Below, piece after piece: positions 142 through 62,286 of a stretch of 64,000 nt of DNA. The translations under genes were made by a program, and so were the position numbers. Each line of letters starts with the position of its first letter. Position 1 is the first letter of the stretch. Source of the DNA: Candidatus Margulisiibacteriota bacterium. GTDB taxonomy: Bacteria > Margulisbacteria > WOR-1 > O2-12-FULL-45-9. Below the pieces are notes generated by a model. That model saw only the letters and a list, made by a program, of their open reading frames with translations, made no database searches and was not told the DNA's origin. The stretch covers positions 83,423 through 147,422 of the forward strand of contig JBAZZP010000003.1 of assembly GCA_041658745.1 (NCBI GenBank), given 5' to 3'.

Positions 142-921
142 TTATGGGATCCAAGGCACCTCCACGGTAATAACGGCTCCCGTACTAGCATTAATTTCGC
201 AGCGGGCAAACTCAGATTGAGCATTATAATCAAAAATAATTTGCCATATAGCATCACCGCCTAGCGTTAATGGGGAACTTAACCGAAAAACATCAAGAAA
301 CGGTTCAGTCTTTCCACTTTCCCAGCTAGCAACCAGTGGAATATTCCTAAAAATGGCAATTGCTTGCGTGCTGTCGATCGGCCAAGTTTCTAAGCTATTG
401 GAAAACGAAGGATAAAAATTAATATAAAGTTCATTTAATTTTGCAGAGTCTGTTTCGGGATATCGATAAGCGCCTCCGTCCACTCTAATTACCTCAAAAG
501 TTACTCCATCACTATAACAAAAATCCCAGTTTTCCGCAGTGGACACGACCGTTCCGCTTCCATGTTGCTCAGAAAGCCAGGCTTTTACTCCTACCAAGTG
601 ATATCCATCTGGGACAAGCCCCCAAGGTTCGCCCATTATATAACACCATCTTAGTCCGCCTACGGCAATAGTGGAAGTAGTCATCCCAGTTGTGGTGCTC
701 GTACTAGTTGTACTCGTCGAGGTCGAAGTTGTGCTCGTTGTGGTTGAAGTGGTTGTCTCGGTTGTTGTGGAAGTGCTGGAAGTGGAGGTTTCAGTTGAGG
801 TTGTAGCTGTGCTGGTTGTAGTAGTAGAAGTAGTAGCTCCGCAACCCATCCCAAACAAAACCAACAGAATAAAAAGGAACCCAAACGAACTAAAAAAAAC
901 TAAACCATTGTTTTTATACAT
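142..921 (-). CDS. Secreted lipoprotein with a long Ser/Thr-rich (mucin-like) linker and a C-terminal globular domain of unknown function
   Basis: N-terminal signal peptide with lipobox-like LVLFGMGC. About 60 aa of T/S low-complexity follows, then an ordered domain. Antisense ORFs 671..1018 and 681..884 are shadows of this repeat. Confidence 0.5.
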   Translation of the reverse strand: MYKNNGLVFFSSFGFLFILLVLFGMGCGATTSTTTTSTATTSTETSTSSTSTTTETTTSTTTSTTSTSTSTTSTSTTTGMTTSTIAVGGLRWCYIMGEPWGLVPDGYHLVGVKAWLSEQHGSGTVVSTAENWDFCYSDGVTFEVIRVDGGAYRYPETDSAKLNELYINFYPSFSNSLETWPIDSTQAIAIFRNIPLVASWESGKTEPFLDVFRLSSPLTLGGDAIWQIIFDYNAQSEFARCEINASTGAVITVEVPWIP

Positions 922-933
922 CTTTTATTTCCT

Positions 934-2115
934 TCAGCTGAATAGATTTTTTAAAAGCTGGCTTCCTCGCACAATCTTCAACTTCGCCTTCCTCGCCTCT
1001 TTCTCATTATACCCCTGAATGCCTTTCCTTGCCATTCCTTGCCCTCCCTTGCCATCATAAATTACGAAAGGCACATCGTCCGCCGTATGTGTCATGTATT
1101 TGATCGGGGTTGGATGATCAGGAAGAACGAGTATCCGGGTATCCGGGGATCCGGGGATCAGGGAATGGTTTAATATATTCCCCACAACATATTTATCAAA
1201 ATCCTCAATCGCTTTAATTTTATGTTTAATATTGCCTTCATGACCGGCTTCGTCGGGCGCTTCAACGTGAACAAAGACAACATCGTGCTTTTTTAGTGCT
1301 CTCAGAGCAGCCTTTGCTTTCCCCACATAATTAGTATCTAAATAGCCGGTTGCTCCTGGGACTTTGATGACTTCAAGTCCAATAATTTTGCCAATTCCTT
1401 TTAGCAAGCCAACAGCAGTTATAATTGCTCCGCTTTTCCCAAATTGTTTTTTAAAAGTCGGCATCGTTGGCGCAGTTCCCTGCCCCCACAACCAAATCAT
1501 GTTAGCTTTTGACTTTAAATCATGCAGAATAACTTCGCCTTCGTTCATCAAGCGCAAAATAGCTTCAGACCCCTTCCCTTTCGGTAAATAATCGTGGATG
1601 CATTGGCCGGTGATGTCATGAGGTGGGGTAGTACCAACATTTGACATTTGACATTTGTCATTTGTCATTATCGTCATGATATGGCGATAGCTAACTCCAG
1701 TGTAAAAGCAAACATCTTTGCTTCCCAACTTCGCATTGAGTTGACGAATTATTTTGTCCGCTTCCTTGGTAGAAATGTGTCCAGCCGTGAAATCTTTCAT
1801 CTTGCCGTCTTTAACGGTCACCAGGTTGCAGCGGAAGGCTAATTCATTGTTCCGCAGTTTAATTCCCAGACTAGCAGCTTCGAGTGGTCCTCTACCCGAA
1901 TAATACTTTTTGGGATCGTAACCAAAAATGCTCATAGCAGCAACGTCAGATCCGGGCGGCATTTTGGGCGGAACGTTATTGGTCCAACCAACAAGGCCAT
2001 TGCGGGCCATAAAATCCAAGTTGGGGGTTTTGGCAACTTCAAGGGGAGTTTTCCCTCCCAAAGCTTTGAGTGGCAGATCGGACATTCCATCGCCGATGAG
2101 AACTAAATACTTCAT
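934..2115 (-). CDS. apgM: 2,3-bisphosphoglycerate-independent phosphoglycerate mutase, archaeal type
   Basis: N-terminus MKYLVLIGDGMSD. Full-length similarity to the ApgM/cofactor-independent PGM family (phosphopentomutase/alkaline phosphatase superfamily). Contains several in-frame short tandem repeat insertions. Confidence 0.85.
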   Translation of the reverse strand: MKYLVLIGDGMSDLPLKALGGKTPLEVAKTPNLDFMARNGLVGWTNNVPPKMPPGSDVAAMSIFGYDPKKYYSGRGPLEAASLGIKLRNNELAFRCNLVTVKDGKMKDFTAGHISTKEADKIIRQLNAKLGSKDVCFYTGVSYRHIMTIMTNDKCQMSNVGTTPPHDITGQCIHDYLPKGKGSEAILRLMNEGEVILHDLKSKANMIWLWGQGTAPTMPTFKKQFGKSGAIITAVGLLKGIGKIIGLEVIKVPGATGYLDTNYVGKAKAALRALKKHDVVFVHVEAPDEAGHEGNIKHKIKAIEDFDKYVVGNILNHSLIPGSPDTRILVLPDHPTPIKYMTHTADDVPFVIYDGKGGQGMARKGIQGYNEKEARKAKLKIVRGSQLLKNLFS

Positions 2116-2516
2116 TTTTTGTTCAACGGCAATTGCAACTCAGGCACAGCAGGGATAGCCATTTTGGGCATCATTTTTTCCACCGCCGGAATACTGGGAA
2201 GCTCTGGGGTAGAAGTCTGAGTAGACATAATTTTATCTTTTATATATGAATTTACCTTGGGTGCTCCATTTTCAATCGTCGGGTAAATGGTTTTGATGAT
2301 GTTGTATGACAGATTAACCACAAACGAATCTTTTAAATACTGTCTCCCAGCCCCCAAGATTGGCCAATCAACGATAAAACTGGTTACAATTCCAAAAATA
2401 ATCAAAGCACAGATGATGATTACAATACTTTTTAAGGTTTTAAAGATTCCACCAAAGTTCTTGACGAGGTAAATTAAAATCAGCGCCCCAATAACAATAT
2501 CGATAATGTTTATCAT
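2112..2516 (-). CDS. Small integral membrane protein, CvpA-like (colicin V production family)
   Basis: Three or four hydrophobic helices and a CvpA-like N-terminus. Placed immediately upstream of apgM and downstream of purE, as cvpA–purF often is. Confidence 0.4.
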   Translation of the reverse strand: MINIIDIVIGALILIYLVKNFGGIFKTLKSIVIIICALIIFGIVTSFIVDWPILGAGRQYLKDSFVVNLSYNIIKTIYPTIENGAPKVNSYIKDKIMSTQTSTPELPSIPAVEKMMPKMAIPAVPELQLPLNKK

Positions 2517-2971
2517 TATCCTTTGCGCATTTCCTGTTTAAACTTTTTTAGTTTGGCTTTTAGCTCGGGGTACTTAAGGGCTAAGATTTGAGCCGCTAAT
2601 ATCGCTGCATTCTTGGCTCCATCAATCGCAACGGTTGCAACCGGAACCCCTGGCGGCATCTGCACAATCGAAAACAAAGCGTCGTGGCCTTCTAGGCCTT
2701 TGGAGTGAATTGGAATCCCAATCACCGGCAAAATAGTGTGACCGGCAATTACGCCGGGCAGCGCCGCCGCCATCCCCGCCGCAGCGATAATTAGATCATA
2801 TTTTTTTTCGGCATTGGCTGCATACCTTGCAACTTGTTGAGGGGTGCGATGGGCCGAGGCGACCGTAATATCATAAGCAACGCCAAATTCTTTTAGCATG
2901 CTTTCAGTTTTAATTAAAATCGGCAGGTCTGACCGACTACCAGTAATGATTCCTACTTTTGGTTGTTTCAT
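2516..2971 (-). CDS. purE: N5-carboxyaminoimidazole ribonucleotide mutase (AIR carboxylase catalytic subunit)
   Basis: [13 protein letters not shown]...AHRTP...[16 protein letters not shown] motifs typical of PurE. 151 aa. Confidence 0.9.
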
Positions 2972-2980
2972 TTTTTCTCC

Positions 2981-4219
2981 CTATTCAGGAGTAACGGTCA
3001 TTATCAGTTTGGCTTGGTCCGGATACTTGGCAATAAAAATCAATTCTTCTTTGGTGAGTGGCTTTTGGGTATGGACATTGGCATAGCGCACCAGTTCTAG
3101 AACTCGGGCTGCTTCTTTGTCATCTTTAAATTCTACTTCTAATTTTCCATAGACATTGGCAAAGCCTTTTATTCCGCTGTATTCACCTACAGTAATCATA
3201 CGGCCAGATTCAACTAGTTCGGGTTCCCCTCGGCCCAATTCTTCGTAATCATATAATTCGTAATTGCGGCGGTTTTTAAGGGCTCCGTCAGCATGAATCC
3301 CTGATTCGTGGGCAAAAGCATTCGAACCTACCCCTACCTGATTAACCGGCAAAGGAATGCCAAAAGCGTATGAAGCATATTTGGCAAACTGCCATATTTT
3401 ATTTAACTTGATATTTTCGGGGAAAAGATTTAAATCTTTAAAACCACTGGAATATTTCAAGGCTAAAAGAACAGAAAGCAAGTCGGCATTACCGGCTCTT
3501 TCTCCCATCCCATTAATGGTCGTATTAATATAAGCGTCTTGTCCGCCGTCAATAATTCCTTTGGCTCCCATCACCGAACAAGCCACTGCCATTCCCAGAT
3601 CATTATGGCAATGCGTCTCAAGTGCAATTTTAGCTTTTTGAGCTATCGTCTTTAGTTTTTCATAAATCGTGAAAGGATCATCGGCCCCCAAAGTATCGCA
3701 ATAGCGAACTCGTTTTGCACCAACTTCTTTGGCAGCTTGGGCAAATTCAACTAGAAAATTAATATCCGTCCTTGAAGCATCTTCAGCGTTAACCCCTATC
3801 GTTTCAGCTCCCATTTTATACCCGGCCTTAACGGCACGCTGCATATTGGTAATAATTTCCTGGCGCGAAAATTTGCCGCTAAACTTGGCTTCGAGCATAA
3901 TATCCGAGGTTGAAATCGACATATTTAAATGCTTTATTGTAGGCACTAATTTATAAGCCAATTCAACGTCTTTGGTAATCGCTCGGATCCAGCCTTCGAG
4001 TTTAATTGGGCTCAGAGCGCCTATCTCGGCGAGTTGTAAATTAGCATTCAGATAATTAACTTCGTGTTGGGTGAAAGGGAAACCAAATTCAGACTGGTAA
4101 ACCCCAATATCGTTGAGATACATATTAACAATGGTTTTTTCTAATTTGGCAAGGCCAATGCGTGAAGTTTGCACCCCATCGCGGTTTGTAACATCCAGAA
4201 TATGAATTTTTGGCATCAT
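2981..4219 (-). CDS. Homocitrate synthase / 2-isopropylmalate synthase family protein (short form, AksA/NifV/CimA-like, no LeuA C-terminal regulatory domain)
   Basis: HMGL-like TIM barrel with LDVTNRDGVQ...ETHCHNDLGMAVA...HESGIHADG signatures. 412 aa. Confidence 0.8.
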   Translation of the reverse strand: MMPKIHILDVTNRDGVQTSRIGLAKLEKTIVNMYLNDIGVYQSEFGFPFTQHEVNYLNANLQLAEIGALSPIKLEGWIRAITKDVELAYKLVPTIKHLNMSISTSDIMLEAKFSGKFSRQEIITNMQRAVKAGYKMGAETIGVNAEDASRTDINFLVEFAQAAKEVGAKRVRYCDTLGADDPFTIYEKLKTIAQKAKIALETHCHNDLGMAVACSVMGAKGIIDGGQDAYINTTINGMGERAGNADLLSVLLALKYSSGFKDLNLFPENIKLNKIWQFAKYASYAFGIPLPVNQVGVGSNAFAHESGIHADGALKNRRNYELYDYEELGRGEPELVESGRMITVGEYSGIKGFANVYGKLEVEFKDDKEAARVLELVRYANVHTQKPLTKEELIFIAKYPDQAKLIMTVTPE

Positions 4220-5198: not shown

Positions 5199-6209
5199 TT
5201 GCTAAGCATGCATTCATATCGCGAAACGCCCGCTCTATTAGATGAGATTATTGCACAGGCAATTTCCCAAAATGCATCTGATATCCATTTAGAGCCGCAC
5301 GAGAATCATCTTAAAGTGCGTTATCGAGTGGACGGGCTTCTGCAAGAAGGAGCCTCTGTTCCCAAGATAAAACAAGCATCGCTTACTTCCCGCCTTAAAG
5401 TGATGGTTAACCTCGATATCGCCGAAAGCCGACAACCGCAAGACGGAAGAACCAATCTGCAAATTAACAAAACAGCCTTTGATGTTCGGGTATCCACCAT
5501 TCCAACGATACATGGCGAAAAAGTAGTTATGCGACTGCTCAACCGCCAGCATGCCGCCCTGAAAATTGACGAGTTAGGGATGGAAAAAGAGGATTTAATA
5601 AAATATGAGAGGATGTTAAAGAAAAGAAGCGGAATAATTTTGGTAACTGGCCCAACGGGATCAGGCAAAACGACCACCCTCTACGCCACACTGTCCTATC
5701 TAAATTCGAAAGAGATAAACATCACGACCATTGAAGATCCGGTAGAATACCAATTGACAGGAATCAACCAAATTCAAATTAATCCAAAGGCAGGATTAAC
5801 TTTTGCTCGCGGGTTGCGCTCTATTTTGCGCCAAGATCCTGACGTTATCATGGTTGGTGAAATTCGCGATTTGGAAACGGCCAAGATCGCCCTACAAGCA
5901 GCGCTAACTGGGCATTTAGTCTTTTCAACCCTGCATACCAATGATGCGACATCAACCATTTGTCGTCTAATCGACATAGGGATCGAAAAATATTTAATCG
6001 AGTCAACCATTGTTGGAGTAATTGCGCAAAGACTAGTGCGCAAGAGAACTAGTGAGGGATATAAGGGACGCATTGGAATCTACGAAGTAATGGAAGGCAT
6101 CCAATCAAACACTGACATGTCTTCTCTTGCACAGAACGGAGAATTAAAAGTAGCACAGGGAATAACCACTAAAGAAGAATTAGCTCGCGTGCTTTATCTC
6201 GAACATTAA
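5199..6209 (+). CDS. Compact type II secretion / type IV pilus assembly ATPase (GspE/PilB family core; lacks N1 domain and tetracysteine zinc motif)
   Basis: ASDIHLEP...RVDG, Walker A GPTGSGKTT, Asp box DPDVIMVGEIRD, His box STLHTND and GYKGRIGIYE. Only 336 aa. Confidence 0.8.
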   Translation: MLSMHSYRETPALLDEIIAQAISQNASDIHLEPHENHLKVRYRVDGLLQEGASVPKIKQASLTSRLKVMVNLDIAESRQPQDGRTNLQINKTAFDVRVSTIPTIHGEKVVMRLLNRQHAALKIDELGMEKEDLIKYERMLKKRSGIILVTGPTGSGKTTTLYATLSYLNSKEINITTIEDPVEYQLTGINQIQINPKAGLTFARGLRSILRQDPDVIMVGEIRDLETAKIALQAALTGHLVFSTLHTNDATSTICRLIDIGIEKYLIESTIVGVIAQRLVRKRTSEGYKGRIGIYEVMEGIQSNTDMSSLAQNGELKVAQGITTKEELARVLYLEH

Positions 6210-6553
6210 CCACCACCGCCACCACCACCGCCGCCTCCGCCACCGGCCCCACCTCCAGCCCCTGCTCCTCCACCAGCTCCAGCTCCACCACTAGAACCAA
6301 CTCCTGGTCCTCCTCCCATATGCGCAAGAAGCGAAATAGCCAAAGCTTTGACATGTTGAAACAGGTTTTTCATGACATTGGTTTCTTGCAAAATTTGAAC
6401 CCGTGGGCATCTTTCGCAGAATTTAAACTCGGCCTTTAGCGGATTACAGGCAGCTTCTGGATAATAAATGCACTTTTTAAACCCTTCTTTTCTACGCTTC
6501 ATTTCTTTAGGGCTAATCAGCTTATTTGCCTCATCAATCTTATTTATTTCCAT
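6206..6553 (-). CDS. Hypothetical small protein with a Cys4 (C-x8-C…C-x2-C) N-terminal region and a poly-Gly/Ala C-terminal tail
   Basis: ORF is convergent with the ATPase gene and shares its TTAA stop. The tail is encoded by a CCACCACCGCC-type repeat. Coding status is uncertain. Confidence 0.3.
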   Translation of the reverse strand: MEINKIDEANKLISPKEMKRRKEGFKKCIYYPEAACNPLKAEFKFCERCPRVQILQETNVMKNLFQHVKALAISLLAHMGGGPGVGSSGGAGAGGGAGAGGGAGGGGGGGGGGGG

Positions 6554-11768: not shown

Positions 11769-12671
11769 ATGCAAACCATTATCCTTTTAGGTCCTACTGC
11801 CGTTGGAAAATCAAAAGCGGCCGTTGAGCTCGCCCTTCAAATCAACGGCGAGATAATTTCCGCCGATTCGATGCAAGTCTATCGCGGCATGGATATTGGG
11901 ACCGCCAAACCGACCAAAGAAGAACAAAAAGGCATTCCCCACCACCTAATTGATATTCGCAACCCTGAAGAAAGCTGGACAGTCTCTGATTTTGTCGAAC
12001 AATCCAACCATCTAACCATCCAACTCTCCTCAAAAGGCAAAACGCCAATCATTGTGGGAGGCACGGGACTCTATTTATGGACCCTAATTAATGGCTATAA
12101 CTTTGCCGGAATTAAATCGGATGAAGCCATCCGGAAACGATTAGAGGAGCTTCCTCCCTCTACGCTCTATGCTCAACTTTCTACGGTCGATCCCCTTTCT
12201 GCCCAAAAAATCCATCCCCACAACAAAAAAAGAGTTATGCGGGCATTGGAAGTGTTTGAATTAACCGGGGAACCGATTTCGAAGCAGCAAGAAAAATTGG
12301 CAAACGGCAAACAGCTAACAGCAACCATTATCGGATTAACTCTGCCTCGCAACCAACTTTACGAACACATCGAACAGCGAATAGAAAATATGATAAAAGC
12401 GGGACTAATTGATGAAGTCAAAGGACTTCTAGACAAGGGATATTCGAAAGGGCTTACTTCTATGCAAGCCCTGGGATATAAAGAAGTGGTTGAATTTTTA
12501 GAGGGACGATGGGATCGAGAAAAATTGATCTATGAGCTCAAAAAACGCACTCGCCACTTTGCCCGCCGGCAAATGACCTGGTTTAGACGCTTCAGAAACG
12601 TTCAATGGATCGATGCAACCCCTGAAAATTTGAATAATCTGGCAAAGTTTGCTAGAATAGAGGAATGGTAA
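11769..12671 (+). CDS. miaA: tRNA dimethylallyltransferase
   Basis: LGPTAVGKSKAAVELA P-loop and ISADSMQVYRGMDIGTAKP. Confidence 0.9.
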   Translation: MQTIILLGPTAVGKSKAAVELALQINGEIISADSMQVYRGMDIGTAKPTKEEQKGIPHHLIDIRNPEESWTVSDFVEQSNHLTIQLSSKGKTPIIVGGTGLYLWTLINGYNFAGIKSDEAIRKRLEELPPSTLYAQLSTVDPLSAQKIHPHNKKRVMRALEVFELTGEPISKQQEKLANGKQLTATIIGLTLPRNQLYEHIEQRIENMIKAGLIDEVKGLLDKGYSKGLTSMQALGYKEVVEFLEGRWDREKLIYELKKRTRHFARRQMTWFRRFRNVQWIDATPENLNNLAKFARIEEW

Positions 12672-15107: not shown

Positions 15108-16189
15108 CTTTTCAGTTCCTTCTTAAGCCGCGTAATCGCATCAACTGGAGTAGGATCAATTTTTGAAACCAGCGGCAAATAAACACTGAGCAAATCACCA
15201 TAATAGATTAACGACAAAATTCGAGCTAATTTGCTTTGACCTTGAGAAAAGATTTCACTAAAGCCACCGAGCTGCCTCCCCAGTAGGGACTTGGTTATTT
15301 CGATGCGCTTTTTGTTTTTTTCGAGATCTTTCTCGTCCCGCAAAAATATTGCCATAAATTTATGACTATCACGTTTTAATTCATATAGGTTAACTATTTC
15401 GTTATGGTTCATTTCAGGCAAAACATAGAGAATGGCACAAGACTTACTATTCTCATTAAACTGACATTTTAGGCGCAAGCCGGCCGCCGCAGAGCTACCA
15501 GCAACTGTAAAAATTAGAGGAATTTTACCGACTAATTGCTGGGCTAGGCGCTTGGCTGGGTTATTGCGCATAGGGCGATTAATCCCTATTTCTCCGCGAA
15601 CTTTTTCAAGGACCAAGGTAGCCTCGTTAATGGCCTTATCCAGATTGCTAACTAACCCACTTTTCTGTAGCGCCTTAAGCAGGGCGATTAAAATGTAGGG
15701 AAGCGCCGCTCTGGGCTGAAAACCTGCTGGCAACATGAACGTTGGATATTTTCGCGCAGTTGCTATTTCTTTTAATTTCCCCCCGGCTGTAATACAAACA
15801 ATCCGAGCCCCTAGAGCCTCAGCCTCTTTTAGACTGGCAAGTGTTTCTTCGGTATCTCCAGAATATGAGATTGAAAAAAAGAGGGTCTCGTCGCCAACCA
15901 TCGCCGGAATACGGTAATTTCGGCAAACCTGAATGGGGACTTTTAAATCGGCAATCAATAAATCAGCAACGATATCACCGGCAATCGCTGATCCGCCCAT
16001 TCCGGAAATCACAATATTCTTTATTTTTTTTATCTTAGGAAATTTGGTGTTTTCATATAATGCTTCAGCTTTTTGCAAATGTTCGGGCATGGCAAGAGCA
16101 ATTCCCAACATGCCACTCTTATCAATTTTATTTATTTCATCTTGATTATCAATTACATCAATTTTATTCATGGTTATTCGACTTAGCAA
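15104..16189 (-). CDS. Bifunctional phosphoglucose/phosphomannose isomerase (archaeal-type PGI/PMI, SIS domains)
   Basis: SGMGGSAIAGD SIS motif and two SIS-like halves. True start may be the internal Met (MNKIDV) at 16171. Confidence 0.75.
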   Translation of the reverse strand: MLSRITMNKIDVIDNQDEINKIDKSGMLGIALAMPEHLQKAEALYENTKFPKIKKIKNIVISGMGGSAIAGDIVADLLIADLKVPIQVCRNYRIPAMVGDETLFFSISYSGDTEETLASLKEAEALGARIVCITAGGKLKEIATARKYPTFMLPAGFQPRAALPYILIALLKALQKSGLVSNLDKAINEATLVLEKVRGEIGINRPMRNNPAKRLAQQLVGKIPLIFTVAGSSAAAGLRLKCQFNENSKSCAILYVLPEMNHNEIVNLYELKRDSHKFMAIFLRDEKDLEKNKKRIEITKSLLGRQLGGFSEIFSQGQSKLARILSLIYYGDLLSVYLPLVSKIDPTPVDAITRLKKELKR

Positions 16190-22804: not shown

Positions 22805-23269
22805 TTAAAAAGGTATTTCGTCAATTTCTTTACTCTCGTCCCCTTCAATGGCCATTACGGGCCCTTTCTTCCCTTCCTCTCCCTCATGGGCCTTCACGGG
22901 CCCTTTGTCCCCCTCTTCTCTTTTTCCCAACATTTGGATATTATCCGCGATAACTTCGACCATGCTTCTTTTTTCGCCATCTCGTCCCACAAAATTACTG
23001 ACCTGCAGCCGGCCTTCTACCGCCACCGGTCGGCCTTTTTTAAGGTATTCGCCCACAATTTCGGCGGTTCTTCTCCATGCAACAATATTTATAAAATCCA
23101 CATCCTGGTTGGCAGATGAAGAATCATGCCCCGTAGCTTCTTGGGATTCTTCCTTGCGTTTAAACCGGTTTACCGCAACCGTAAAACGACAGACAGGAAT
23201 CCCCGAAGTGGTATAGCGAAGCTCCGGATCCCTCGTTAAATTCCCAATTATAAAAACTTTATTATACAT
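22805..23269 (-). CDS. ssb: Single-stranded DNA-binding protein (copy 1) with duplicated Gly/Lys/Glu-rich tail ending DEIPF
   Basis: OB-fold N-terminus MYNKVFIIGNLTRDPELRYT and an acidic C-terminal tip. The tail contains two copies of a KGPV(K/M)A(H/I)EG unit. Confidence 0.85.
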   Translation of the reverse strand: MYNKVFIIGNLTRDPELRYTTSGIPVCRFTVAVNRFKRKEESQEATGHDSSSANQDVDFINIVAWRRTAEIVGEYLKKGRPVAVEGRLQVSNFVGRDGEKRSMVEVIADNIQMLGKREEGDKGPVKAHEGEEGKKGPVMAIEGDESKEIDEIPF

Positions 23270-23314
23270 GCCATATACCCTTAATCGCCTTTATGGGCCC
23301 TCATGGGCCTTTTA

Positions 23315-23737
23315 CTAAAAAGGCAAATCGTTATCTAAGTCAGCGTCATCCACCACATCTTCGGCGGCAGCAACACTGGCAAGCGTCGGTTTAGCAGCGT
23401 GTTGGTGATCAGCTCCCAGCAAAAAAACATCTTTCGCTACGACTTCAGTTACCCATTTCCGTTTCCCGCCTTGGTCATCAAAAGAGCGGACCTGAATTCG
23501 TCCTTCAACTAAGACCATTTGGCCGGATTTTAATTTTGCACTGCCTTCGGCAACATTGCGCCAGGCAATAATATCAATTAAATCAGAACCAGATTGGATC
23601 GGCGTTGGTTGTCCTAAAGAAGCCCGCCTCTCAACCAGCAATTTAAATTTGGTCATGGCCAAACCGTCCATCGTAGCACGCGCCTCGGCATCTGTAGCCA
23701 GTTTACCTGACAAAATAATACGGTTTAAACTAGCCAA
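23315..23737 (-). CDS. ssb: Single-stranded DNA-binding protein paralog (copy 2), tail ending DNDLPF
   Basis: OB-fold with LSGKLATDAEAR...W...VEGRIQVRSF and a C-terminal D-D-L-P-F tip. Confidence 0.75.
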   Translation of the reverse strand: MASLNRIILSGKLATDAEARATMDGLAMTKFKLLVERRASLGQPTPIQSGSDLIDIIAWRNVAEGSAKLKSGQMVLVEGRIQVRSFDDQGGKRKWVTEVVAKDVFLLGADHQHAAKPTLASVAAAEDVVDDADLDNDLPF

Positions 23738-35525: not shown

Positions 35526-37154
35526 ATGCAGCCAGAGCCAACCATTAAAATCCTCACCGAAGAACTAATCAACAAAATCGCTGCCGGAGAAGTGGTTGAG
35601 AGACCAGCCGCTGCGGTTAAAGAATTGGTTGAGAACTCGATTGACGCCGGCGCATCCAAAGTAAGCGTTGAAATTCAAGCAGCTGGCAGTAAACTAATCC
35701 GCGTTGCCGATAACGGCCGGGGAATGAGCCAAGAAGATTTAACTCTTGCGGTCCAACGCCATGCCACTTCCAAAATTAGCACCTTGGAAGACTTATTTAA
35801 CATTCAAACCCTGGGCTTTCGCGGAGAAGCGCTCTCCTCCATTGCCGCGGTTTCAAAATTTGATATCGAACAAAATCCTTCAGGACAAGGCGTTACCGTT
35901 ACGGCCAAAGACTTATTTTACAACACTCCCGCCCGCAAAAAGTTTTTAAAATCACCCTCGACCGAAATGGGACACATTGGCGACGTAGTTTCCAAATACG
36001 CCATGGCCTACCCAGAAATTGCCTTTGAATTAATTGTGGATGGAAAACCCCTCTTGCAATCCCCTGGATCAGGAAAACTAAAAGATGCCGTCTTGTCGGT
36101 TTACGGCTTAGAACTAGTTAAAGACTTGATTGCAATCGAAGGTAAAATTAACAACATTAAGGTCTCGGGCCTCATTAGTTTGCCCACTCTAACCCGGGTG
36201 GATAAAAATTATGAGAATTTTTTTGTCAACCGTCGTTTTGTAAAAAACTTCTTACTCAACCGGGCACTTGAAGACGCTTATCGTACTTTAATTCCCAATA
36301 ATCGTTATCCTGCAGCTATTGTCTTTATCGATGTCGATCCCAAACAAATCGATGTTAACGTCCACCCCACTAAACGCGAAATAAAGTTTGCCAATAATCA
36401 GGCCGTAATGGAAGCTGTTCGCACGGTTGTTCAGCAAGCCTTAGGCAACAAAACTCCCATACTCCATACTCCAAACTCCAATCTCCATACTCATTCCCAC
36501 TGGGATCCTCCGTGCCAGAAATGGGAACCAAGCATGGCTGACGTTCTCTTTCCGGTAGAGTGTGCGACTGGTGAAAATCTTCCTTTAAGGCCTGTTAGCA
36601 CTTACAAAGATACCTACATTATTACCACTGATGGAGAAGACCTGGTAATGATCGATCAGCACGCGGCTCACGAACGAGTGTTATACGACCGGCTCACAGC
36701 TCACAGCTCACAGCAAGCCCACGTTGAACAACAAACTTTGTTATTGCCCGAAAATATTGAGTTGGATACAAAAAGTTATTCAACAACCAAGGCAAATTTA
36801 GATTTACTGCGTGAGCTAGGCTTTGATTTGGAAGAGTTTGGCGGAAATGCCTTAATTTTACGCGCTGTTCCATCAATCTCGTCCAAGCTTAACCCTAAAC
36901 AACTCTTACTAGATATCGTGGCCGAATTAGACAATCTCGGCAAAAGCGTTCAAACCGAAACCAAACAAGAAAATATCCGCAAATTAATCGCTTGCCATAG
37001 TGCAGTCAAAGCAGGGGATAAATTATCCGCTCTCGAAATTAACCAACTGATCAAAGACCTTTATGCAACCCAAAACCCCATGACCTGCCCACACGGTCGA
37101 CCAATCATGTTTCGGATGACCGAAAACGAAATTAAAAAGAAATTTGCCCGCTAG
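35526..37154 (+). CDS. mutL: DNA mismatch repair protein MutL
   Basis: GHKL ATPase N-terminus (ELVENSIDAG...DNGRGM...GFRGEAL) and C-terminal dimerisation domain. No mutS adjacent. Carries heptamer repeat insertions. Confidence 0.9.
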   Translation: MQPEPTIKILTEELINKIAAGEVVERPAAAVKELVENSIDAGASKVSVEIQAAGSKLIRVADNGRGMSQEDLTLAVQRHATSKISTLEDLFNIQTLGFRGEALSSIAAVSKFDIEQNPSGQGVTVTAKDLFYNTPARKKFLKSPSTEMGHIGDVVSKYAMAYPEIAFELIVDGKPLLQSPGSGKLKDAVLSVYGLELVKDLIAIEGKINNIKVSGLISLPTLTRVDKNYENFFVNRRFVKNFLLNRALEDAYRTLIPNNRYPAAIVFIDVDPKQIDVNVHPTKREIKFANNQAVMEAVRTVVQQALGNKTPILHTPNSNLHTHSHWDPPCQKWEPSMADVLFPVECATGENLPLRPVSTYKDTYIITTDGEDLVMIDQHAAHERVLYDRLTAHSSQQAHVEQQTLLLPENIELDTKSYSTTKANLDLLRELGFDLEEFGGNALILRAVPSISSKLNPKQLLLDIVAELDNLGKSVQTETKQENIRKLIACHSAVKAGDKLSALEINQLIKDLYATQNPMTCPHGRPIMFRMTENEIKKKFAR

Positions 37155-37260
37155 TGTAGGGGATCTCGACACTGCTGCTGTCTAAAAATCGTCGTTTTTG
37201 TTTTACTTAGCCTTGACCAGAGCTGATTAGGCTTGGCAATACAATTGCTAGGGATTGAAT

Positions 37261-37446
37261 ATCTGGTGATCAGGAAATCTGGGAAGGGAGATCGGGGAAT
37301 CAGGATATCTGGATAGGGAAATCAAGACAGTAGAAAATTATAGATTTGAATAATTATTATGAAAATACGGTCTTAAAGGTTTATTTCCCCCTAATTTCCA
37401 GATGCCCGGATTCCCCTTTCCTGATTCCCCGATCCCCAGATACCCA
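37261..37446. repeat. Imperfect inverted-repeat element (two ~60-bp GGGGAATCAGGA/ATCTGG-rich arms around a ~60-bp AT-rich core) in the mutL–topA intergenic region
   Basis: Arm 1 at 37261..37325. The reverse complement of 37384..37446 shares GATCGGGGAATCAGGA and ATCTGG-containing blocks with it. No ORF. Confidence 0.5.
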
Positions 37447-37508
37447 ATAGCATATTTGACAGCTCAACCCATGCTCTGTTACCATCTTATCAGAAGCGCA
37501 AATAATTT

Positions 37509-47631: not shown

Positions 47632-48486
47632 TTATACCAGCTTCAAATTTATATCCAGTGCCTTAGAGGAATGCGTTAGCTCGCCAATCGAAATAAAATC
47701 CACGCCAGTAGCGGCAATTTTCGCAACTGTTTTTAAATTTACTCCGCCAGACGCTTCGGTTTTTATCCCAGCCTCTTTGCATAATTTAACCGCTTGCCTT
47801 AGAGTTTTAATCTCCATATTATCTAAAAGTATCCTCCCAGCCCCCACTTCAATTGCTTCTTTGACTTCCCCTATTGTCTTTGCTTCAATTTCCGCCCTAA
47901 GCCCTCTCCATCTTCCCTTGCCCTTCCTTGCCTTTCCTTGCCCCTCAACTGCTTCAATCGCTTCTTTCACGCCTCCCGCCAAAGCAATGTGATTATCTTT
48001 AATTAACACAGCATCGTAAAGCCCCATCCGATGGTTAGTTCCGCCACCACACTTGACCGCGTACTTTTCCAAGGAACGTAATCCTGGGATCGTTTTTCGA
48101 GTATCTAGCACTTTGACCATCGACAATGGACCCTGGACTTTTGCAACGAATTTTGCCGTCAGCGTAGAAACCCCAGAAAGATGTTGCAGAAAATTTAACG
48201 CTACGCGCTCGCCCGTTAGTATCCCGCGAGCTGGCCCAGACAGTTCAGCTAAAATTGTCCCCGCCTTAACTAATTGGCCATCTCGGCATTTTGGAATAAA
48301 TTTAATTCTACAATCGATCTGCCGAAAAACCTCACGGGCAATGTCTATCCCCGCAATAACTCCGGCTTCTTTAGCGCGAATAACCGCTTTGGCAATTTTA
48401 TCTCTTGCCACAATCGCATTGGTCGTGATATCTCCCGTGCCAACGTCTTCTTTTAGCGCCGCTTTAATTATTTCAATATAACCCAT
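47632..48486 (-). CDS. nadC: Nicotinate-nucleotide pyrophosphorylase (quinolinate phosphoribosyltransferase)
   Basis: Conserved QPRTase N- and C-domains. Contains an inserted Gly/Lys/Arg-rich segment (GQGKARKGKGRWRG) encoded by a CCTTGCC-type tandem repeat. Confidence 0.85.
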   Translation of the reverse strand: MGYIEIIKAALKEDVGTGDITTNAIVARDKIAKAVIRAKEAGVIAGIDIAREVFRQIDCRIKFIPKCRDGQLVKAGTILAELSGPARGILTGERVALNFLQHLSGVSTLTAKFVAKVQGPLSMVKVLDTRKTIPGLRSLEKYAVKCGGGTNHRMGLYDAVLIKDNHIALAGGVKEAIEAVEGQGKARKGKGRWRGLRAEIEAKTIGEVKEAIEVGAGRILLDNMEIKTLRQAVKLCKEAGIKTEASGGVNLKTVAKIAATGVDFISIGELTHSSKALDINLKLV

Positions 48487-49274: not shown

Positions 49275-49980
49275 TCACCTGCTCTTTAGTTTTACCAAAT
49301 TTGCGTGTACGTTTCTGAAAATCTTCGATGGCAGCAATTAGTTGTTCCCGGCGAAAATCGGGCCAATAAGTAGGAGTCACATAAATTTCGGCATAGGCTA
49401 TTTGCCATAACAGAAAATTGGACACTCGCATCTCATTAGCAGTACGAATCAGCAGGTCAGGGTCAGGCATGTTTTTTGTGTATAGATATTGGGAAATTGT
49501 TTCCTCGTTTATTTCGTCATTTTTTAATTCGTCATTCGTCATTCGTTTACATGCATCTACTAGTTCGGCTCGCCCCCCATAATTAACCATTACATTTAAA
49601 GTGATGCGAGAATTGTTTTTGGTGGTTTCCATTGAGTTCTTCATTCTTTGTTGCAAGGCCAAAGAAAATTGTTCGAGCCGACCTAAGAAGTTAAGCTTAA
49701 CACTATTGGCCATCAAATCATCGATTTCACTATCAATGGTTTGCATAAAAAGATCCATTAAAAAATCAACTTCTTCTTGTGGTCTCCTCCAATTTTCGGT
49801 AGAAAAAGCATAGACGGTTAAATATTTTACGCCAAACTCAGCACAAGCCTTGAGGATTGCTCGAACAGATTCTGCTCCTTCTTTGTGGCCAGCAATGCGC
49901 GGCAGACCCTTTGCCTGCGCCCAACGCCCGTTCCCATCCATGATAATTGCAATGTGTTGAGGAATGTTATTGCGATCCAT
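49261..49980 (-). CDS. uppS: Undecaprenyl (isoprenyl) diphosphate synthase
   Basis: HIAIIMDGNGRWA and TVYAFSTENWRRP motifs. Contains an NDE-repeat insertion. Confidence 0.9.
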   Translation of the reverse strand: MDRNNIPQHIAIIMDGNGRWAQAKGLPRIAGHKEGAESVRAILKACAEFGVKYLTVYAFSTENWRRPQEEVDFLMDLFMQTIDSEIDDLMANSVKLNFLGRLEQFSLALQQRMKNSMETTKNNSRITLNVMVNYGGRAELVDACKRMTNDELKNDEINEETISQYLYTKNMPDPDLLIRTANEMRVSNFLLWQIAYAEIYVTPTYWPDFRREQLIAAIEDFQKRTRKFGKTKEQVSDVA

Positions 49981-49995
49981 TTGCCCATCCTAAAA

Positions 49996-50550
49996 CTAAA
50001 CCTCGAGAATTTCTTTTTCCTTAGAATGTAATATTTTGTCAATGTCGGCAGAATATTTGTCGGTTAGTTCCTGGACTTTTTTGTCCTGGGTTTTTTCTTC
50101 ATCCTCGGTGATTTGTTTTTCGTTTTTCTTTTTTTTGAGAGCTTCCACTGCTTCGCGACGAATATTACGCAACGCTACCTTGCTTTCTTCCGATTCCTTT
50201 TTAACCGTTTTTACGAGTTCTTTGCGCCGTTCCTCGGAAGGGGAAGGGAGGGAAAGGCGAATAACGTTAGCATCTCTCCGCGGATTAAGTCCCAAATCAG
50301 ACGACATCAAGGCCCTTTCAATATCGGCAGAAGCATTTTTATCGAACGGGGTGATCACCAAACTGCGTGGCTCTGGAGCGGAAACCTGGGCAATTTGTTT
50401 TAGAGGCACATCCGACCCATAATATGAAACCTTAATGTGATCAAGCAAGGAGGGATTGGCGCGACCAGTCCTAACCCCCGACAGGTTCTTCTTTAATGCT
50501 TCCAGTGCTTTTTGCATTTTAATTTCGCTTTCTTTAATTACATCTTGCAT
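49996..50550 (-). CDS. frr: Ribosome recycling factor
   Basis: 184 aa, conserved RRF family sequence, downstream of pyrH. Confidence 0.9.
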   Translation of the reverse strand: MQDVIKESEIKMQKALEALKKNLSGVRTGRANPSLLDHIKVSYYGSDVPLKQIAQVSAPEPRSLVITPFDKNASADIERALMSSDLGLNPRRDANVIRLSLPSPSEERRKELVKTVKKESEESKVALRNIRREAVEALKKKKNEKQITEDEEKTQDKKVQELTDKYSADIDKILHSKEKEILEV

Positions 50551-52427: not shown

Positions 52428-54254
52428 GTGCCTCTCGAAACCACCCATTATCCTAAAGAATATGATGTAATCGTCATTGGCGCTGGGCATGCAGGAATTG
52501 AAGCTGCCTTGGCGGCAGCTCGCATGGGTTGTCAGACCTTACTCTTAACTATCAACCTTGATACGATTGCTTTTATGGCCTGTAATCCCGCCGTGGGGGG
52601 GCCGGCAAAAAGCCAATTAGTACGCGAAGTTGACGCTTTAGGCGGACAAATGGGAGTATCGACCGATTTAACTTTCTTGCAGATGAAAATGCTCAACACC
52701 ACCAAAGGCCCAGCGGTTCAAGCTTTGAGAGCCCAGTCTGACCGCAATTCCTATCACGTCACTATGAAACAGGTCCTCGAAGAACAAACCAATCTTGATC
52801 TAAAACAAGGGATTGTCGAAGAACTTCTTTCCGACTCACGCCCCCATACGCCCACCGATTCACCCGACGCAACCACCACCGCTAGACGCATTACGGGAGT
52901 CCGCACAAATCTCAACATGGTTTACTCAAGCAAAACCGTTGTGGTAACAACAGGAACGTTCCTCAATGGCATCGTTCACGTTGGAATGACCCACATGGAA
53001 GCCGGCCGAGCAGGAGAATTGCCCGCTAAAGGTATGTCTGAAAGTTTGGTAGCACTGGGATTAGAACTTGGAAGATTAAAAACCGGGACTCCAGCCCGAT
53101 TAAATAAACGCTCGATCGATTTTTCTAAAATGATCCCGCAGCCTGGCGACGAACCACCAAAAATGTTTTCATTTGTCTGGGAATATCAACAATACGGGTT
53201 ATCGGGGAATCCGATGATCGGGGGATCTGGGACAAATCAAATTCCTTGTCATTTAACCTGGACTACTCCTCAAACTCACGCAATTATCCGAGCAAATCTT
53301 GATCGTTCACCGTTATTTCAGGGGAAAATTAAAGGAACGGGGCCTCGCTATTGTCCGTCGATTGAAGATAAAGTTGTTCGCTTCCCTGAAAAAGATCGAC
53401 ATCAATGTTTCATTGAACCGTGCGGGAGAGACACGCTGGAAATGTACGCCCAAGGCATGAGCACCAGCCTTCCCGCCGATGTACAACTAGAAATGCTAAG
53501 AACTATGCCAGGGCTTGAAAATGTAGAAATGCTGCGGCCGGGATACGCCGTTGAGTATGATTACGTCAAGCCCTCTCAACTCTTGCCCACCTTAGAAACC
53601 AAACAGATTACTGGGTTGTTTTGTGCTGGACAAATTAACGGGACTTCGGGCTACGAAGAAGCGGCCGCGCAAGGAATTGTAGCGGGGATAAACGCCGCAC
53701 TTAAAGTTAAAGAGAAAGAGCCGCTCGTGCTGGGGAGAGAAAACTCATATATTGGAACTTTAATTGACGACCTAATCACCAAAGATATTGACGAGCCTTA
53801 TCGCATGTTAACTTCACGCTCCGAATATCGCTTGCTTCTGCGACAAGATAATGCCGACCTGCGGTTGACAGAAAAAGGTTATCAGGTTGGTTTAATTTCT
53901 AAAGAACGTTTTTCTAGTTTTCAGAAAAAGAAAGCGGCAGTTGAATCTGAAACAGTTATTTCCCCGGAAACAGAAGAACAAATCGCCATAACCAAAAAAT
54001 ATGCAGGCTATATAATGCGCCAATTGCAACAAATCGAGCGTTTTAAAAAACTGGAACACAAAAAATTGCCCTCGGATTTTGATTACTCGGAACTACGAGG
54101 ATTATCTAATGAGGCTCGAATTAAACTGGCCAAAATTCAACCCCTTTCCATCGGACAAGCCACCAGAATTGCGGGAGTTTCTCCAGCCGACATTTCTGTT
54201 TTGCTAATTCACCTTGAAACCCGTGGACGCTCAAAAGAATCTATGCTAAAATAA
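52428..54254 (+). CDS. mnmG: tRNA uridine 5-carboxymethylaminomethyl modification enzyme MnmG (GidA)
   Basis: [19 protein letters not shown] motif and full-length GidA similarity. Carries a Pro/Thr/Ser-rich insertion. Confidence 0.9.
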
Positions 54255-61209: not shown

Positions 61210-62286
61210 ATGTCCAAACAAACTCCCCTTTATTCCCAACATATAAAGCTTGGTGCCAAAATGGTTCCCTTTGGCGGCTGGGATATGCCGGTTTCGTATA
61301 AGGGCATCATTGAAGAGCACAATGCTACCCGCAAGGCGGCGGGACTGTTTGATATTGGCCATATGGGACTGATTAAAATTGAAGGCAAAGACGATCTGAC
61401 TTTTATCCAAAGTGTTGCTACCAATGATGCTTCCCTTTTGGCACTAAACGAATGCCAATATTCTATTCTTTGTACTCCTAGCGGTGGAGCAATTGACGAT
61501 ATTTTGGTTTACCGTTTACCGATGTTTTATATGATTATTTGCAATGCCTCTAATTTTGATAAAGTCATGGCATGGCTAACCGAAAAAGCAAAAGATTATT
61601 CTTCTTTAATTGTCGCGCCCTATGAAAATTATTGCGCTATCGCCCTGCAGGGCCCAAAAGCAATTTCGCTGACCGAAAAAACCCTAAAGGTTCCGCTTTC
61701 TTCTCTCAAACGCAACCATACGCTTTGGTGGCGCGATATTATTATCTCCCGCACCGGCTATACCGGCGAGGACGGGGTTGAAATGGTTATCGCCAAAAAT
61801 GAAGTGGCAAAGATTTGGGAAATGTTTATCGCAGCGGGAGCACAACCCTGCGGCCTGGGCGCACGCGACACCCTGCGGCTTGAAGCGGGGCTTCCACTTT
61901 ACGGACATGAATATAATGATCAGACCTCTCCGCTTGAAGTTGGTTATAGTTGGGCGGTAAAGTTGAACAAGGGAGAATTTGTTGGGCGAGAAGCATTGCT
62001 TAAACAAAAAGAGCAAGGATTAACAAAAAAGCTGGTTGGATTGGAAGTTGAGGGAAGGGCAATTGCAAGACAAGGGGGCGAAGTGTATGGTCAAGAGAAA
62101 GTAGAAAATGGAAAATTGAAAATAGGAACTGTATCGAGTGGAACGTTCTCCCCAACCCTGCAAAAACCAATTGCTTTGGCCTTCTTGGATCCAACACATG
62201 CCAAGATTGGAAACCTGGTCCAAGTTAAAATCCGCGAAAATTTCGCAAACGCTAAGATTGTTGCTAAATCGTTCTATAAGCGATAA
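61210..62286 (+). CDS. gcvT: Glycine cleavage system T protein (aminomethyltransferase)
   Basis: MSKQTPLYSQHIKLGAKMVPFGGWDMPVSY N-terminus. Start moved to the ATG at 61210. Confidence 0.9.
   Translation: MSKQTPLYSQHIKLGAKMVPFGGWDMPVSYKGIIEEHNATRKAAGLFDIGHMGLIKIEGKDDLTFIQSVATNDASLLALNECQYSILCTPSGGAIDDILVYRLPMFYMIICNASNFDKVMAWLTEKAKDYSSLIVAPYENYCAIALQGPKAISLTEKTLKVPLSSLKRNHTLWWRDIIISRTGYTGEDGVEMVIAKNEVAKIWEMFIAAGAQPCGLGARDTLRLEAGLPLYGHEYNDQTSPLEVGYSWAVKLNKGEFVGREALLKQKEQGLTKKLVGLEVEGRAIARQGGEVYGQEKVENGKLKIGTVSSGTFSPTLQKPIALAFLDPTHAKIGNLVQVKIRENFANAKIVAKSFYKR

Follow-up and report, generated by a model that had tools for sequence, protein, structure and literature searches.

How conserved housekeeping enzymes come to carry short tandem repeats within their reading frames is the question raised by a stretch of DNA of 64 kb (the window) that comes from a metagenome-assembled genome (MAG) of Candidatus Margulisiibacteriota and is 94% coding. 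An initial annotation of this window had pointed to repeat tracts that stay in frame in apgM, mutL, nadC, uppS and mnmG, had described them as insertions and had suggested a genome-wide tolerance of, or mechanism for, repeat expansion. The tracts are real, being 20- to 50-fold above the numbers found in shuffled sequence, and in related genomes the same sites are occupied by other arrays. They are read here, with moderate confidence, as products of template switching during DNA synthesis that are filtered by the reading frame and by the tolerance of protein loops.

Three tandem tracts in apgM

Arrays were called with Tandem Repeats Finder (TRF) at a score of at least 30 and the tracts were then mapped onto open reading frames (ORFs). 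This combination bore out the three in-frame tracts reported for apgM, which are named R1 to R3 in the order of the protein:

934..2115, reverse strand: apgM, cofactor-independent phosphoglycerate mutase, 393 residues (NCBIfam NF003242, 549.8 bits)
1637-1669, reverse strand: apgM R1, ACATTTG, period 7, 4.7 copies, 96% matches
1133-1163, reverse strand: apgM R2, ATCCGGGG, 3.9 copies, with the 8-nt unit ATCCCCGG
1020-1055, reverse strand: apgM R3, period 10, TTCCTTGCCN, 3.6 copies, with the unit GGCAAGGRAN

R3 had been described as a nonamer repeat, where TRF gives a period of 10 nt, and the correction matters since any number of nonamer copies holds the frame, which is not true of decamers. It consists of three good GGCAAGGRAN units followed by a native-like fourth (GGCATTCAGG), and encodes the peptide DGKGGQGMARKGI. 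R2 encodes SLIPGSPDTRI, has its G-rich strand on the antisense side and belongs to a family of GGG(N)ATC type with further copies at 37286-37445 and 53196. R1 can be written as (ATGACAA)2(ATGTCAA)2 followed by a native ATGTTGG and encodes MTNDKCQMSNV.

The apgM protein is 100% identical to a protein of a Candidatus Margulisiibacteriota MAG. In an alignment of 29 apgM orthologues (63-85% identity) the catalytic columns are invariant and each of the three length-variable regions corresponds to one of the tracts. An AlphaFold2 model of the protein (mean predicted local distance difference test score, pLDDT, 76.6) places R1 (residues 149-160) in the loop after a strand at 145-150, R2 (residues 318-328) at the end of a helix at 296-319 and in the loop that precedes a strand at 326-332, and R3 (residues 354-366) inside a low-confidence coil at 337-369. 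Against the solved structure PDB 2ZKT the tracts add 2, 3 and 4 residues, and their peptides are missing from the orthologues compared outside the clade, so that an ancestral origin of these segments, raised with the first description of the tracts, finds no support.

A second type of small in-frame insert was seen among the relatives, the contigs of which (numbered with an L below) were retrieved through their apgM orthologues. In L005 a 12-nt palindrome, CCTGCCGGCAGG, at 16176-16187 adjoins a heptamer array, and in the orthologues P0009, P0021, P0031, P0054, P0084 and P0182 peptides such as PAGRQ, CRQAG and VRQAG lie in the same variable loops. The palindrome CCTGCCGGCAGG, which encodes PAGRQ, was looked for in the window and not found there.

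An excess of short arrays and its phylogenetic extent

The class of array that was counted has 2.8 or more copies and a period of 5 or more that is not divisible by 3. TRF found 12 such arrays in the window, whereas dinucleotide shuffles of it (n=30) gave a mean of 0.6 and a maximum of 3, within-gene codon shuffles (n=30) a mean of 0.23 and a maximum of 1, and 50 kb of E. coli K-12 none. Some weak TRF matches (score 30-36, 2-3 copies) fall within the range of the shuffles. The arrays have 2.8-5.1 copies with 82-100% matches and mostly imperfect units, are scattered along the entire 64 kb and draw on at least 10 unrelated unit sequences. All 12 strong arrays are inside ORFs, the reading frame is open through every coding tract, and the host ORFs are intact and conserved. 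No bias of array position toward the starts or ends of genes was seen in the window.

The suggestion of a genome-wide process can be extended to the lineage. Array density in five contigs of Margulis- and Saganbacteria other than the window is similar to that of the window itself; the Margulisbacteria contigs L002, L005 and L041 hold 12, 24 and 21 arrays per 64 kb respectively and the Saganbacteria contig L006 holds 15. Density is low in most other taxa, with 0-8 arrays per 64 kb in most archaeal, Aquificota and Omnitrophota contigs. Among the 59 arrays of at least 2.8 copies in the Margulis- and Saganbacteria loci (318 kb), period 7 accounts for 32, period 8 for 11 and period 10 for 8, the remainder having periods of 14 (3), 6 (2) and 9 (3), while in other taxa (478 kb) periods divisible by three predominate. 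The modal size of the heptamer arrays is 4.1-4.9 units, or approximately 30 nt. Arrays of this kind occur in independent assemblies (JGI, ENA and NCBI) of related organisms, which shows that they are not assembly artefacts, a possibility that the first description had left standing.

No shared sequence or structure unites the arrays. Comparison of 52 of them showed many unrelated units and variable ends that grade into native sequence; they lack a consensus, and neither fixed ends nor terminal inverted repeats nor target-site duplications were seen. Only one of eight tracts folded as DNA gave z < -2 and the mutL tract was without any structure, and a hairpin or REP-like (repetitive extragenic palindromic) structure was therefore rejected as the basis of the arrays; no Rfam family was matched in the window. 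The R1 heptamer was also considered as a special, widespread family. A metagenome scan for (CAAATGW)n gave at least 120 matches in sequences of GC content 0.28-0.66. Four-unit arrays of it had 20 matches in viral contigs, against 10 and 24 for shuffled-unit control heptamers. As arbitrary heptamers are about as common in arrays as that of R1, no special sequence family is needed and this candidate was rejected.

Two loci in other taxa deserve mention in this context. In L044 (Nealsonbacteria, of the candidate phyla radiation, CPR) heptamer arrays of more than 7 units, of AAATCCA and CTCAAAA, occupy 1565-1616 and 2090-2139, and the phenomenon thus extends beyond the clade of Margulis- and Saganbacteria. 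In L022 (Omnitrophota) a composite block of three heptamer arrays (AAGACCC, CGAGTTT and AACTTTA) is repeated several times, at a spacing of ~2.3-2.9 kb, between 3931 and 11278. This locus, at 57 arrays per 64 kb the densest of all, has the appearance of one larger unit in several copies and not of a set of independent arrays.

Turnover between relatives

The closest relative of the window apgM, L001, is a JGI contig of 2.3 kb. Across the first 800 nt the two genes are 88-98% identical per 100 nt, and yet all three tracts are unrelated, with sharp borders. At R1 L001 has another heptamer of equal total length, at R2 it has an array of 7/14-nt period where the window has 8-mers, with a 3-nt gap in the alignment, and at R3 it has another 10-mer array that is 30 nt longer than that of the window, a difference of three 10-mers. 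The pair L168 and L169, which are 87% identical, is likewise changed at apgM R2, in radA and in an intergenic region. At the sites of R1, R2 and R3 an array of about four units is peculiar to each lineage examined, the R2 site being occupied in relatives by different 7-, 8- or 14-nt arrays, and the same is true of sites in aroA and miaA. At the tracts compared (those of L001 and the R2 loci) relatives differ in unit sequence and not in copy number. The comparison with related genomes, which had been proposed as a check, indicates that the tracts evolve much faster than their flanks.

Pairs that might have captured single events were less helpful. The P0048 organism is represented by a JGI assembly (L002) and an ENA assembly (L003), which show no difference in 21,194 nt and so are uninformative as a strain-polymorphism pair. 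L170 and L171, which carry the apgM genes of P0004 and P0006, are identical for ~945 nt and then abruptly fall to ~75% identity, which points either to a chimeric assembly or to homologous recombination within apgM from one lineage to another. This pair was rejected as a source of single events because it is a mosaic and does not record change in situ. In L168, an ENA contig, ClpB is split into several short ORFs (991-3135) and is intact in the close relative L169. The break probably results from indel errors of that assembly, and single-base differences in L168 are therefore not to be trusted.

Probable local origin and the reading frame

Several of the arrays blend into the sequence beside them. 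The last unit of R2 is, in every lineage, the native sequence that encodes (R/K)I(L/V)V, the R3 arrays share the native end RAAGGC|ATT and the R1 arrays the native end AATGT. In mutL, orthologues have a single copy of GCTCAAT at the position where the window has three copies of GCTCACA, and this copy resembles a native seed.

The length of the R2 loop (measured from DFD to PDH) depends on the unit that it contains. In 9 of 11 loci it equals 22 residues plus the unit length in nucleotides, as follows:

R2 loop with an 8-mer unit: 30 residues, fits 6 of 6 loci
R2 loop with a 7-mer unit: 29 residues, fits 2 of 3 loci
R2 loop with a 14-mer unit: 36 residues, fits 1 of 1 locus

The exceptions are L170, with a 7-mer array, and L169, with a mixed 8/7-mer array, in both of which the loop has 28 residues. 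In 110 orthologues, measured between anchors that span two more residues, loop length peaks at 31 and 32 residues; minor classes at 38-40 and 47 residues may represent double arrays. The rule is what would be expected of one native unit plus three added units, since the addition of three units gives the protein as many residues as the unit has bases. It had been proposed that heptamers keep frame by occurring in multiples of three. Copy numbers do not behave in this way; what preserves the frame is that the net gain in length is divisible by 3. The 30-nt difference between the R3 arrays of the window and L001 and the 33-nt insert of nadC also speak for quantisation by frame. Units that would introduce a stop in frame are changed: in the third unit of R1, the one that is read in that frame, a change of A to T (TGA to TGT) removes the stop, and the GGCCCGTGAA arrays have a degenerate third and fourth unit.

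Cassettes shared between unrelated loci

Some arrays recur, in whole or in part, at loci that are otherwise unrelated. Those of the window that enter into these comparisons, besides the tracts of apgM, are:

22850..22915, reverse strand: ssb linker cassette, two GGCCCRTGAR units, two degenerate units and two further units
47912-47943, reverse strand: nadC tract, 10-nt unit GGCAAGGRAN, 3 copies (TRF)
49508-49546, reverse strand: uppS tract, heptamer GACGAAT, 2.9 copies (49527-49546), overlapping a 15-nt repeat, 1.9 copies (49508-49536; both TRF)

The exact 32-34-nt array of R1 is also present in the apgM of L002, a protein of 66% amino acid identity in which the flanks of the array are ~68% identical, which is ordinary divergence. 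It is found again, in frame, in aroA of L007, and the same heptamer occupies that site in a Saganbacteria aroA. The R3 array of L001 is collinear with the ssb linker of the window over ~72 nt, of which 22 nt are exact (E about 1e-6), and the collinear match includes the degenerate units in the middle of the cassette. The window R3 and the nadC tract are 92% identical over 25 nt, R2 resembles intergenic arrays at 37420-37445, and the uppS tract is 95% identical over 20 nt to the R1 array of L170 and L171. A non-self match within the window was found for 4 of 22 tracts as against 8 of 300 random control 40-mers. Exact sharing between arrays of the window extends to 14-16 nt at most, and exact dispersed repeats of at least 13 nt are mostly ordinary background, with only four that involve arrays. 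The same element at unrelated loci is therefore a property of some cassettes (ssb and apgM R3, apgM R1 and aroA, apgM R3 and nadC), and most arrays have no such counterpart in the available sequence.

In the aroA of the Saganbacteria contig L006 the CAAATGT array at a hairpin site is split by a 24-nt insert (TCCCTCGACTTCGCTCGGGACGAG), which constitutes a nested insertion.

Tracts elsewhere in the window

Further tracts lie in miaA (two), gcvT, frr, a family-4 glycosyltransferase gene, an M23 peptidase gene and the linker of ssb, the host ORFs being named by NCBIfam. The features beyond those already listed are:

11998..12024, forward strand: miaA tract 1, 8-nt unit AACCATCC, 3.4 copies (TRF)
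12300..12324, forward strand: miaA tract 2, heptamer GCAAACA, 3.6 copies (TRF)
23275..23312, reverse strand: intergenic 10-mer copy between two ssb genes, in a 45-nt spacer, GGCCCATGAG GGCCCATAAA GGC
35526..37154, forward strand: mutL (NCBIfam), carrying two tracts
36451-36492, forward strand: mutL tract 1, heptamer CCATACT (of ACTCCAT type), 5.1 copies, 86% matches (TRF)
36692-36714, forward strand: mutL tract 2, GCTCACA, 3.3 copies, 100% matches (TRF)
37255-37325 and 37385-37450, inverted relative to each other: arrays of the mutL-topA spacer, 8-mers ATCNGGRN flanking an AT-rich core
47632..48486, reverse strand: nadC (NCBIfam), carrying the one tract listed above
50115..50134, reverse strand: weak frr tract, GAAAAAC, 2.9 copies, score 33 (TRF)
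52428..54254, forward strand: mnmG, with only degenerate repeats
~52833-52890, forward strand: mnmG insert of 15 residues, a gap against PDB 2ZXH, with weak ACGCCC periodicity and no clean array
53196-53240, forward strand: degenerate stretch of GGG(N)ATC type in mnmG, about 6 added residues
56192..56221, forward strand: family-4 glycosyltransferase tract, heptamer AAGACAC, 4.3 copies (TRF), with the in-frame peptide KIQDTRDKAQ
62104..62128, forward strand: gcvT tract, GAAAATG, 3.4 copies (TRF), partly coding for a conserved ENGK (alignment to PDB 1YX2)

The two mutL tracts and the nadC tract were recovered much as first described, all of them in frame. The uppS tract had been read as a nonamer in three copies and is the overlapping heptamer and 15-mer given above, and for mnmG, where no TRF array reaches a score of 30, the evidence comes down to the insert and the degenerate stretch.

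That the tracts would lie in tolerant loops is supported beyond apgM. The first mutL tract is in an interdomain linker where the lengths of orthologues vary freely, and the second directly follows the DQHAAHE endonuclease motif, at which the window protein is 3 residues longer than its orthologues. In ssb (22805..23269) the Pfam SSB domain spans residues 3-114 and the tract comes after it, in the disordered tail past the OB fold.

The description of the tracts as insertions holds for some of them and fails for others. It applies to nadC, where the tract is a true insertion of 33 nt relative to the closest relative, L226, and of 8 residues relative to PDB 1X1O, in a loop that ranges from 27 to 40 residues across 120 orthologues, and the apgM tracts account for a gain of no more than 2-4 residues each against PDB 2ZKT. 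It does not apply to uppS, to either miaA tract or to gcvT, which are of the same length as, or shorter than, solved homologues. The window uppS is 4 residues shorter than its PDB homologues at the tract, which is 94% conserved over 36 nt in the orthologue of L226, and the first miaA tract aligns without gaps to PDB 2QGN and to the Saganbacteria orthologue. At the second miaA site the Saganbacteria orthologue in L006 has a different array, an 8-mer in 4.5 copies.

Tandem units of GGG(N)ATC type, which are degenerate and of 7-9 nt, occur at 1137-1163, 37286-37301, 37401-37445 and 53196-53240, two of these four loci being inside ORFs. A scan of the window for the motif gave 10 matches as against 0.21 in shuffles. 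Well-conserved neighbouring genes (HMGL-like, shikimate dehydrogenase, T2SSE and topA) had no arrays in any of the 5-13 genomes compared.

Intergenic features were noted beside two of the hosts. The two ssb genes are in tandem (22805..23269 and 23315..23737, reverse strand), both end in an acidic tip of the form (I/L)PF, the linker cassette belongs to the downstream gene, and the 10-mer copy in their spacer is tied to the ssb tract by an exact match of 14 nt. The mutL-topA spacer (37155-37508) is unusually long at 354 nt. Its two arrays share an exact inverted match of 16 nt, and just downstream of them is a promoter-like TTGACA and TTACCAT pair separated by 17 nt.

Origin of the arrays

Taken together these data make it rather probable that the tracts belong, as tandem arrays of short units, to the heptanucleotide-dominated class of prokaryotic simple sequence repeats (SSRs), and that they arise by template switching during DNA synthesis and are then filtered by frame and by loop tolerance. 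In cis, a native word of 7, 8 or 10 nt at the edge of a tolerant loop would be copied repeatedly by slippage or stuttering. Inside ORFs only those events that add units in multiples of three would survive, with the consequence that the typical array would comprise one native unit and three copies, or about four units and 30 nt; we infer that the three units may be added in one event. Units that would create an in-frame stop would bear a point change. Occasionally an existing array or composite cassette might be copied in trans to another locus with which it shares microhomology, and this would place the same cassette in unrelated genes and produce a sharp-bordered replacement with little change in length. 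Purifying selection would clear arrays outside loops, linkers and disordered tails, and expansion, contraction and replacement would turn arrays over faster than point substitution alters their flanks.

A number of observations weigh against this explanation. No intermediate or polymorphic states of an array were seen among the sequences compared, the base state of the R2 loop was not observed among 120 orthologues, and a step from one unit to four in a single event has no demonstrated enzymology. The rule of 22 residues plus the unit length rests on 11 loci, and little weight is given to a protein-level test in which loop length was associated with 7- or 8-residue periodicity (p = 4e-17), since it is in part circular, both ends of the loop being anchored by conserved motifs. 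Simple expansion does not predict the length-neutral tracts, which comprise both of miaA, uppS, gcvT and, relative to L001, apgM R1. A preference for four units is also seen in intergenic heptamer repeats, where frame cannot be the cause (PMC4692102). An identical array of 32 nt across 66% amino acid identity fits poorly with fast neutral turnover. Finally, no donor was identified for most tracts within the 64 kb of the window genome and the 2.3 kb of L001.

Alternatively, the arrays would be tiny mobile or enzymatically 'written' cassettes, with a dedicated activity (transposase-like, a recombinase or a polymerase/primase system) that inserts or overwrites patches of ~30-70 nt from a pool of repeat families, and with the resemblance to the flanks reflecting microhomology at the insertion site and not a local origin. 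We regard this as unlikely, although it is supported by the array common to apgM (window and L002) and aroA (L007), which is shared down to its variant pattern, and by the ~72-nt composite cassette common to the ssb linker and the R3 of L001. The recurrence of GGCAAGGRAN in apgM and nadC and of GGG(N)ATC-type units at four loci, together with the sharp borders and similar length of the replacements between close relatives, points the same way, as do the multi-copy four-heptamer elements in and between genes of Geobacter metallireducens (PMC2700814). Against it, the arrays have neither a shared consensus, fixed ends, terminal inverted repeats and target-site duplications nor consistent hairpins, the mutL tract being structureless. 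Their units are highly diverse, with arbitrary heptamers equally common, exact sharing within the window stops at 14-16 nt, and no transposase-like gene was noticed in the window among the ~20 ORFs scanned against family libraries. The corresponding general proposition, that a previously undescribed patch-copying process moves or rewrites cassettes of this size between unrelated genes inside essential enzymes, quantised by frame, is held to be doubtful; the ssb linker and the apgM loop, or apgM and aroA, may be examples of donor and recipient. If it were true, the tracts would be the footprints of a specific enzymatic activity and not of generic slippage, and the 'four heptamer' elements of Geobacter, Xanthomonas and Nostoc, so far unexplained, could have the same origin.

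The conservation of certain arrays raises a different possibility, namely that they are functional nucleic-acid elements (protein-binding sites in a 7-nt register, G-quadruplexes, or elements with a role in mRNA regulation or translational pausing) that the protein tolerates and that selection maintains at the nucleotide level. The 32-nt array that is perfectly conserved between orthologues with ~68% identical flanks, the 94% conservation of the uppS tract and the paired inverted arrays upstream of topA are all consistent with this. So is the size of about four units, which is that of the intergenic G-quadruplex-forming GGGNATC repeats (PMC4692102), a family to which degenerate units of the window appear to belong, and regulatory roles have been proposed for the four-heptamer elements of Geobacter (PMC2700814). 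A single binding specificity cannot, however, explain at least 10 unrelated units in 64 kb or the different units that close relatives have at the same site. G-rich units are in the minority, neither an Rfam match nor a consistent structure was found, and positions are unbiased toward gene starts or ends. These findings make nucleotide-level function an improbable explanation.

The hypervariability of the contingency-locus kind suggested by the initial annotation, in which frequent slippage in copy number would switch or vary proteins as in the phase variation of Haemophilus or Neisseria, is highly improbable. The tracts are indeed coding tandem repeats and outpace their flanks in divergence between relatives, but the arrays have just 3-5 mostly imperfect units, their hosts (apgM, mutL, nadC, uppS, miaA, gcvT and ssb) are housekeeping genes and not surface or restriction-modification genes, and frame is intact in all tracts. 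Relatives differ by unit sequence and not by copy number, and across 21 kb no difference separates the two assemblies of one relative, which were made independently. Nor would hypermutable switches be expected to include a tract that is identical at 66% amino acid identity and another that is 94% conserved. Chance periodicity, ordinary low-complexity loops or assembly artefacts, to which a few weak TRF matches within the shuffle range and the absence of a clean array in mnmG might be ascribed, are refuted for the strong tracts by their excess over shuffles, by the same signature in JGI, ENA and NCBI assemblies and by the position of every tract in frame within an intact conserved gene, and have a negligible claim overall.

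Comparison with known repeat systems

Margulisbacteria are a sister lineage of Cyanobacteria, and the heptamer repeats of the cyanobacterium Calothrix PCC 7601 are known as STRR. Heptamer repeats in that organism are cited in a study of related elements (PMC4692102). Long SSRs with units of 5-11 nt occur across prokaryotes and have heptanucleotides as the commonest class (Mrazek, Guo & Shah 2007, as summarised in PMC4679880 and PMC4692102). According to these summaries they are in excess at many loci in particular non-pathogen lineages, polymerase slippage with a 7-nt register has been proposed for them, and units divisible by three are favoured in coding DNA (PMC4679880; PMC4692102). The tracts of the window have the defining features of this class, in that words of this size are iterated beyond chance, with heptamers commonest, at many loci and as a property of the lineage. 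They differ in that units that are not multiples of three dominate inside ORFs, apparently quantised by frame and confined to loops. A literature search gave no relevant paper on tandem repeats in Margulisbacteria, and what is new here is the lineage, the mainly in-frame coding sites, the apparent frame quantisation, the rapid replacement of cassettes and their sharing between unrelated genes.

Three heptamer systems offer closer comparisons. The G-quadruplex-forming GGGNATC repeats of Xanthomonas and Nostoc have a marked tendency to occur in about four units and are scattered over both strands (Rehm et al., 2015; PMC4692102). They are mainly intergenic, within 50 bp of ORF ends, and under-represented in coding DNA (PMC4692102). 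Degenerate units that appear to belong to this family occur in the window (apgM R2, mnmG and the mutL-topA spacer), with the same preference for about four units and on both strands, but the arrays here are mostly coding and most units are not G-rich, so that G-quadruplex formation is not their general rationale. In Geobacter metallireducens, elements of four tandem heptanucleotides (GGACCGG), together with octanucleotide and paired sites, have been described in and between genes (Aklujkar et al., 2009; PMC2700814). The four tandem 7- or 8-nt units in and between genes of the window are similar, and the paired opposite-strand intergenic arrays of Geobacter resemble the mutL-topA spacer. The Geobacter elements nevertheless form a few high-copy families, with 49 copies of one consensus, and have been interpreted as regulatory (PMC2700814), whereas the window has many low- or single-copy unit types that grade into native sequence. 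The TAACTGA direct repeats of Beggiatoaceae, Cyanobacteria and Bacteroidetes occur in 2-6 copies with a patchy phylogenetic distribution (MacGregor, 2015; PMC4679880). Like the arrays described here they are heptamer direct repeats, patchily distributed and free of stops in coding DNA, where they are tolerated only in stop-free orientations (PMC4679880). They consist, however, of one specific heptamer that lies mostly just upstream of start codons, as opposed to the many, mostly coding units of the window.

The phase-variable SSRs of contingency loci in host-adapted pathogens (PMC2651432, for Haemophilus) are slippage-prone tandem repeats within coding sequence, as are the arrays of the window. 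In contingency loci, units of 1-5 nt form long and perfect runs within surface or restriction-modification genes and exert their effect by breaking the frame, while the window arrays are short, imperfect and frame-keeping and belong to housekeeping genes.

Rickettsia palindromic elements and the small dispersed repeats of Nostoc are selfish insertions that keep the frame, contribute translated surface segments to conserved proteins and turn up in genes unrelated to one another. Each kind has a fixed length (~100-150 nt, or 21-27 nt), a hairpin structure and a consensus for its family, in all of which they are unlike the window tracts, which are tandem arrays without a common consensus or structure.

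Implications

The repeated rewriting of surface loops and linkers in essential enzymes of an uncultivated phylum is probably the work of a mutational process and not of selection. The origin of heptanucleotide repeats in prokaryotes is unexplained, and a gene-dense lineage that forces the arrays into ORFs provides a ruler in the form of the reading frame. With a loop that equals a base plus the unit length and one pair of relatives three units apart, the size of the mutational event becomes measurable, and the same ruler separates slippage from cassette copying in a testable manner. A translated cassette can be common to the linker of ssb and to a metabolic enzyme. In practice the tracts should be masked in phylogenomic alignments, since they can distort estimates of orthologue identity; they may serve as strain markers, and they are not to be 'corrected' as assembly errors.

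Additional observations

Two ORFs of the window have low-complexity segments of another kind. The first (142-921, reverse strand, 259 residues) has no Pfam match, shows a weak NCBIfam similarity to a thioredoxin-like lipoprotein family and has an N-terminal third that is rich in Thr and Ser and of low complexity, with 21-/24-nt repeats at 706-775 and a GTA run at 818-836. The second is a candidate ORF without a Pfam match (6206-6553, reverse strand, 115 residues) that lies directly against the T2SSE ATPase gene of the opposite strand, at the stop codon of the latter. ACC/GCC triplet repeats at 6209-6291 give it ~28 C-terminal Gly and Ala residues.

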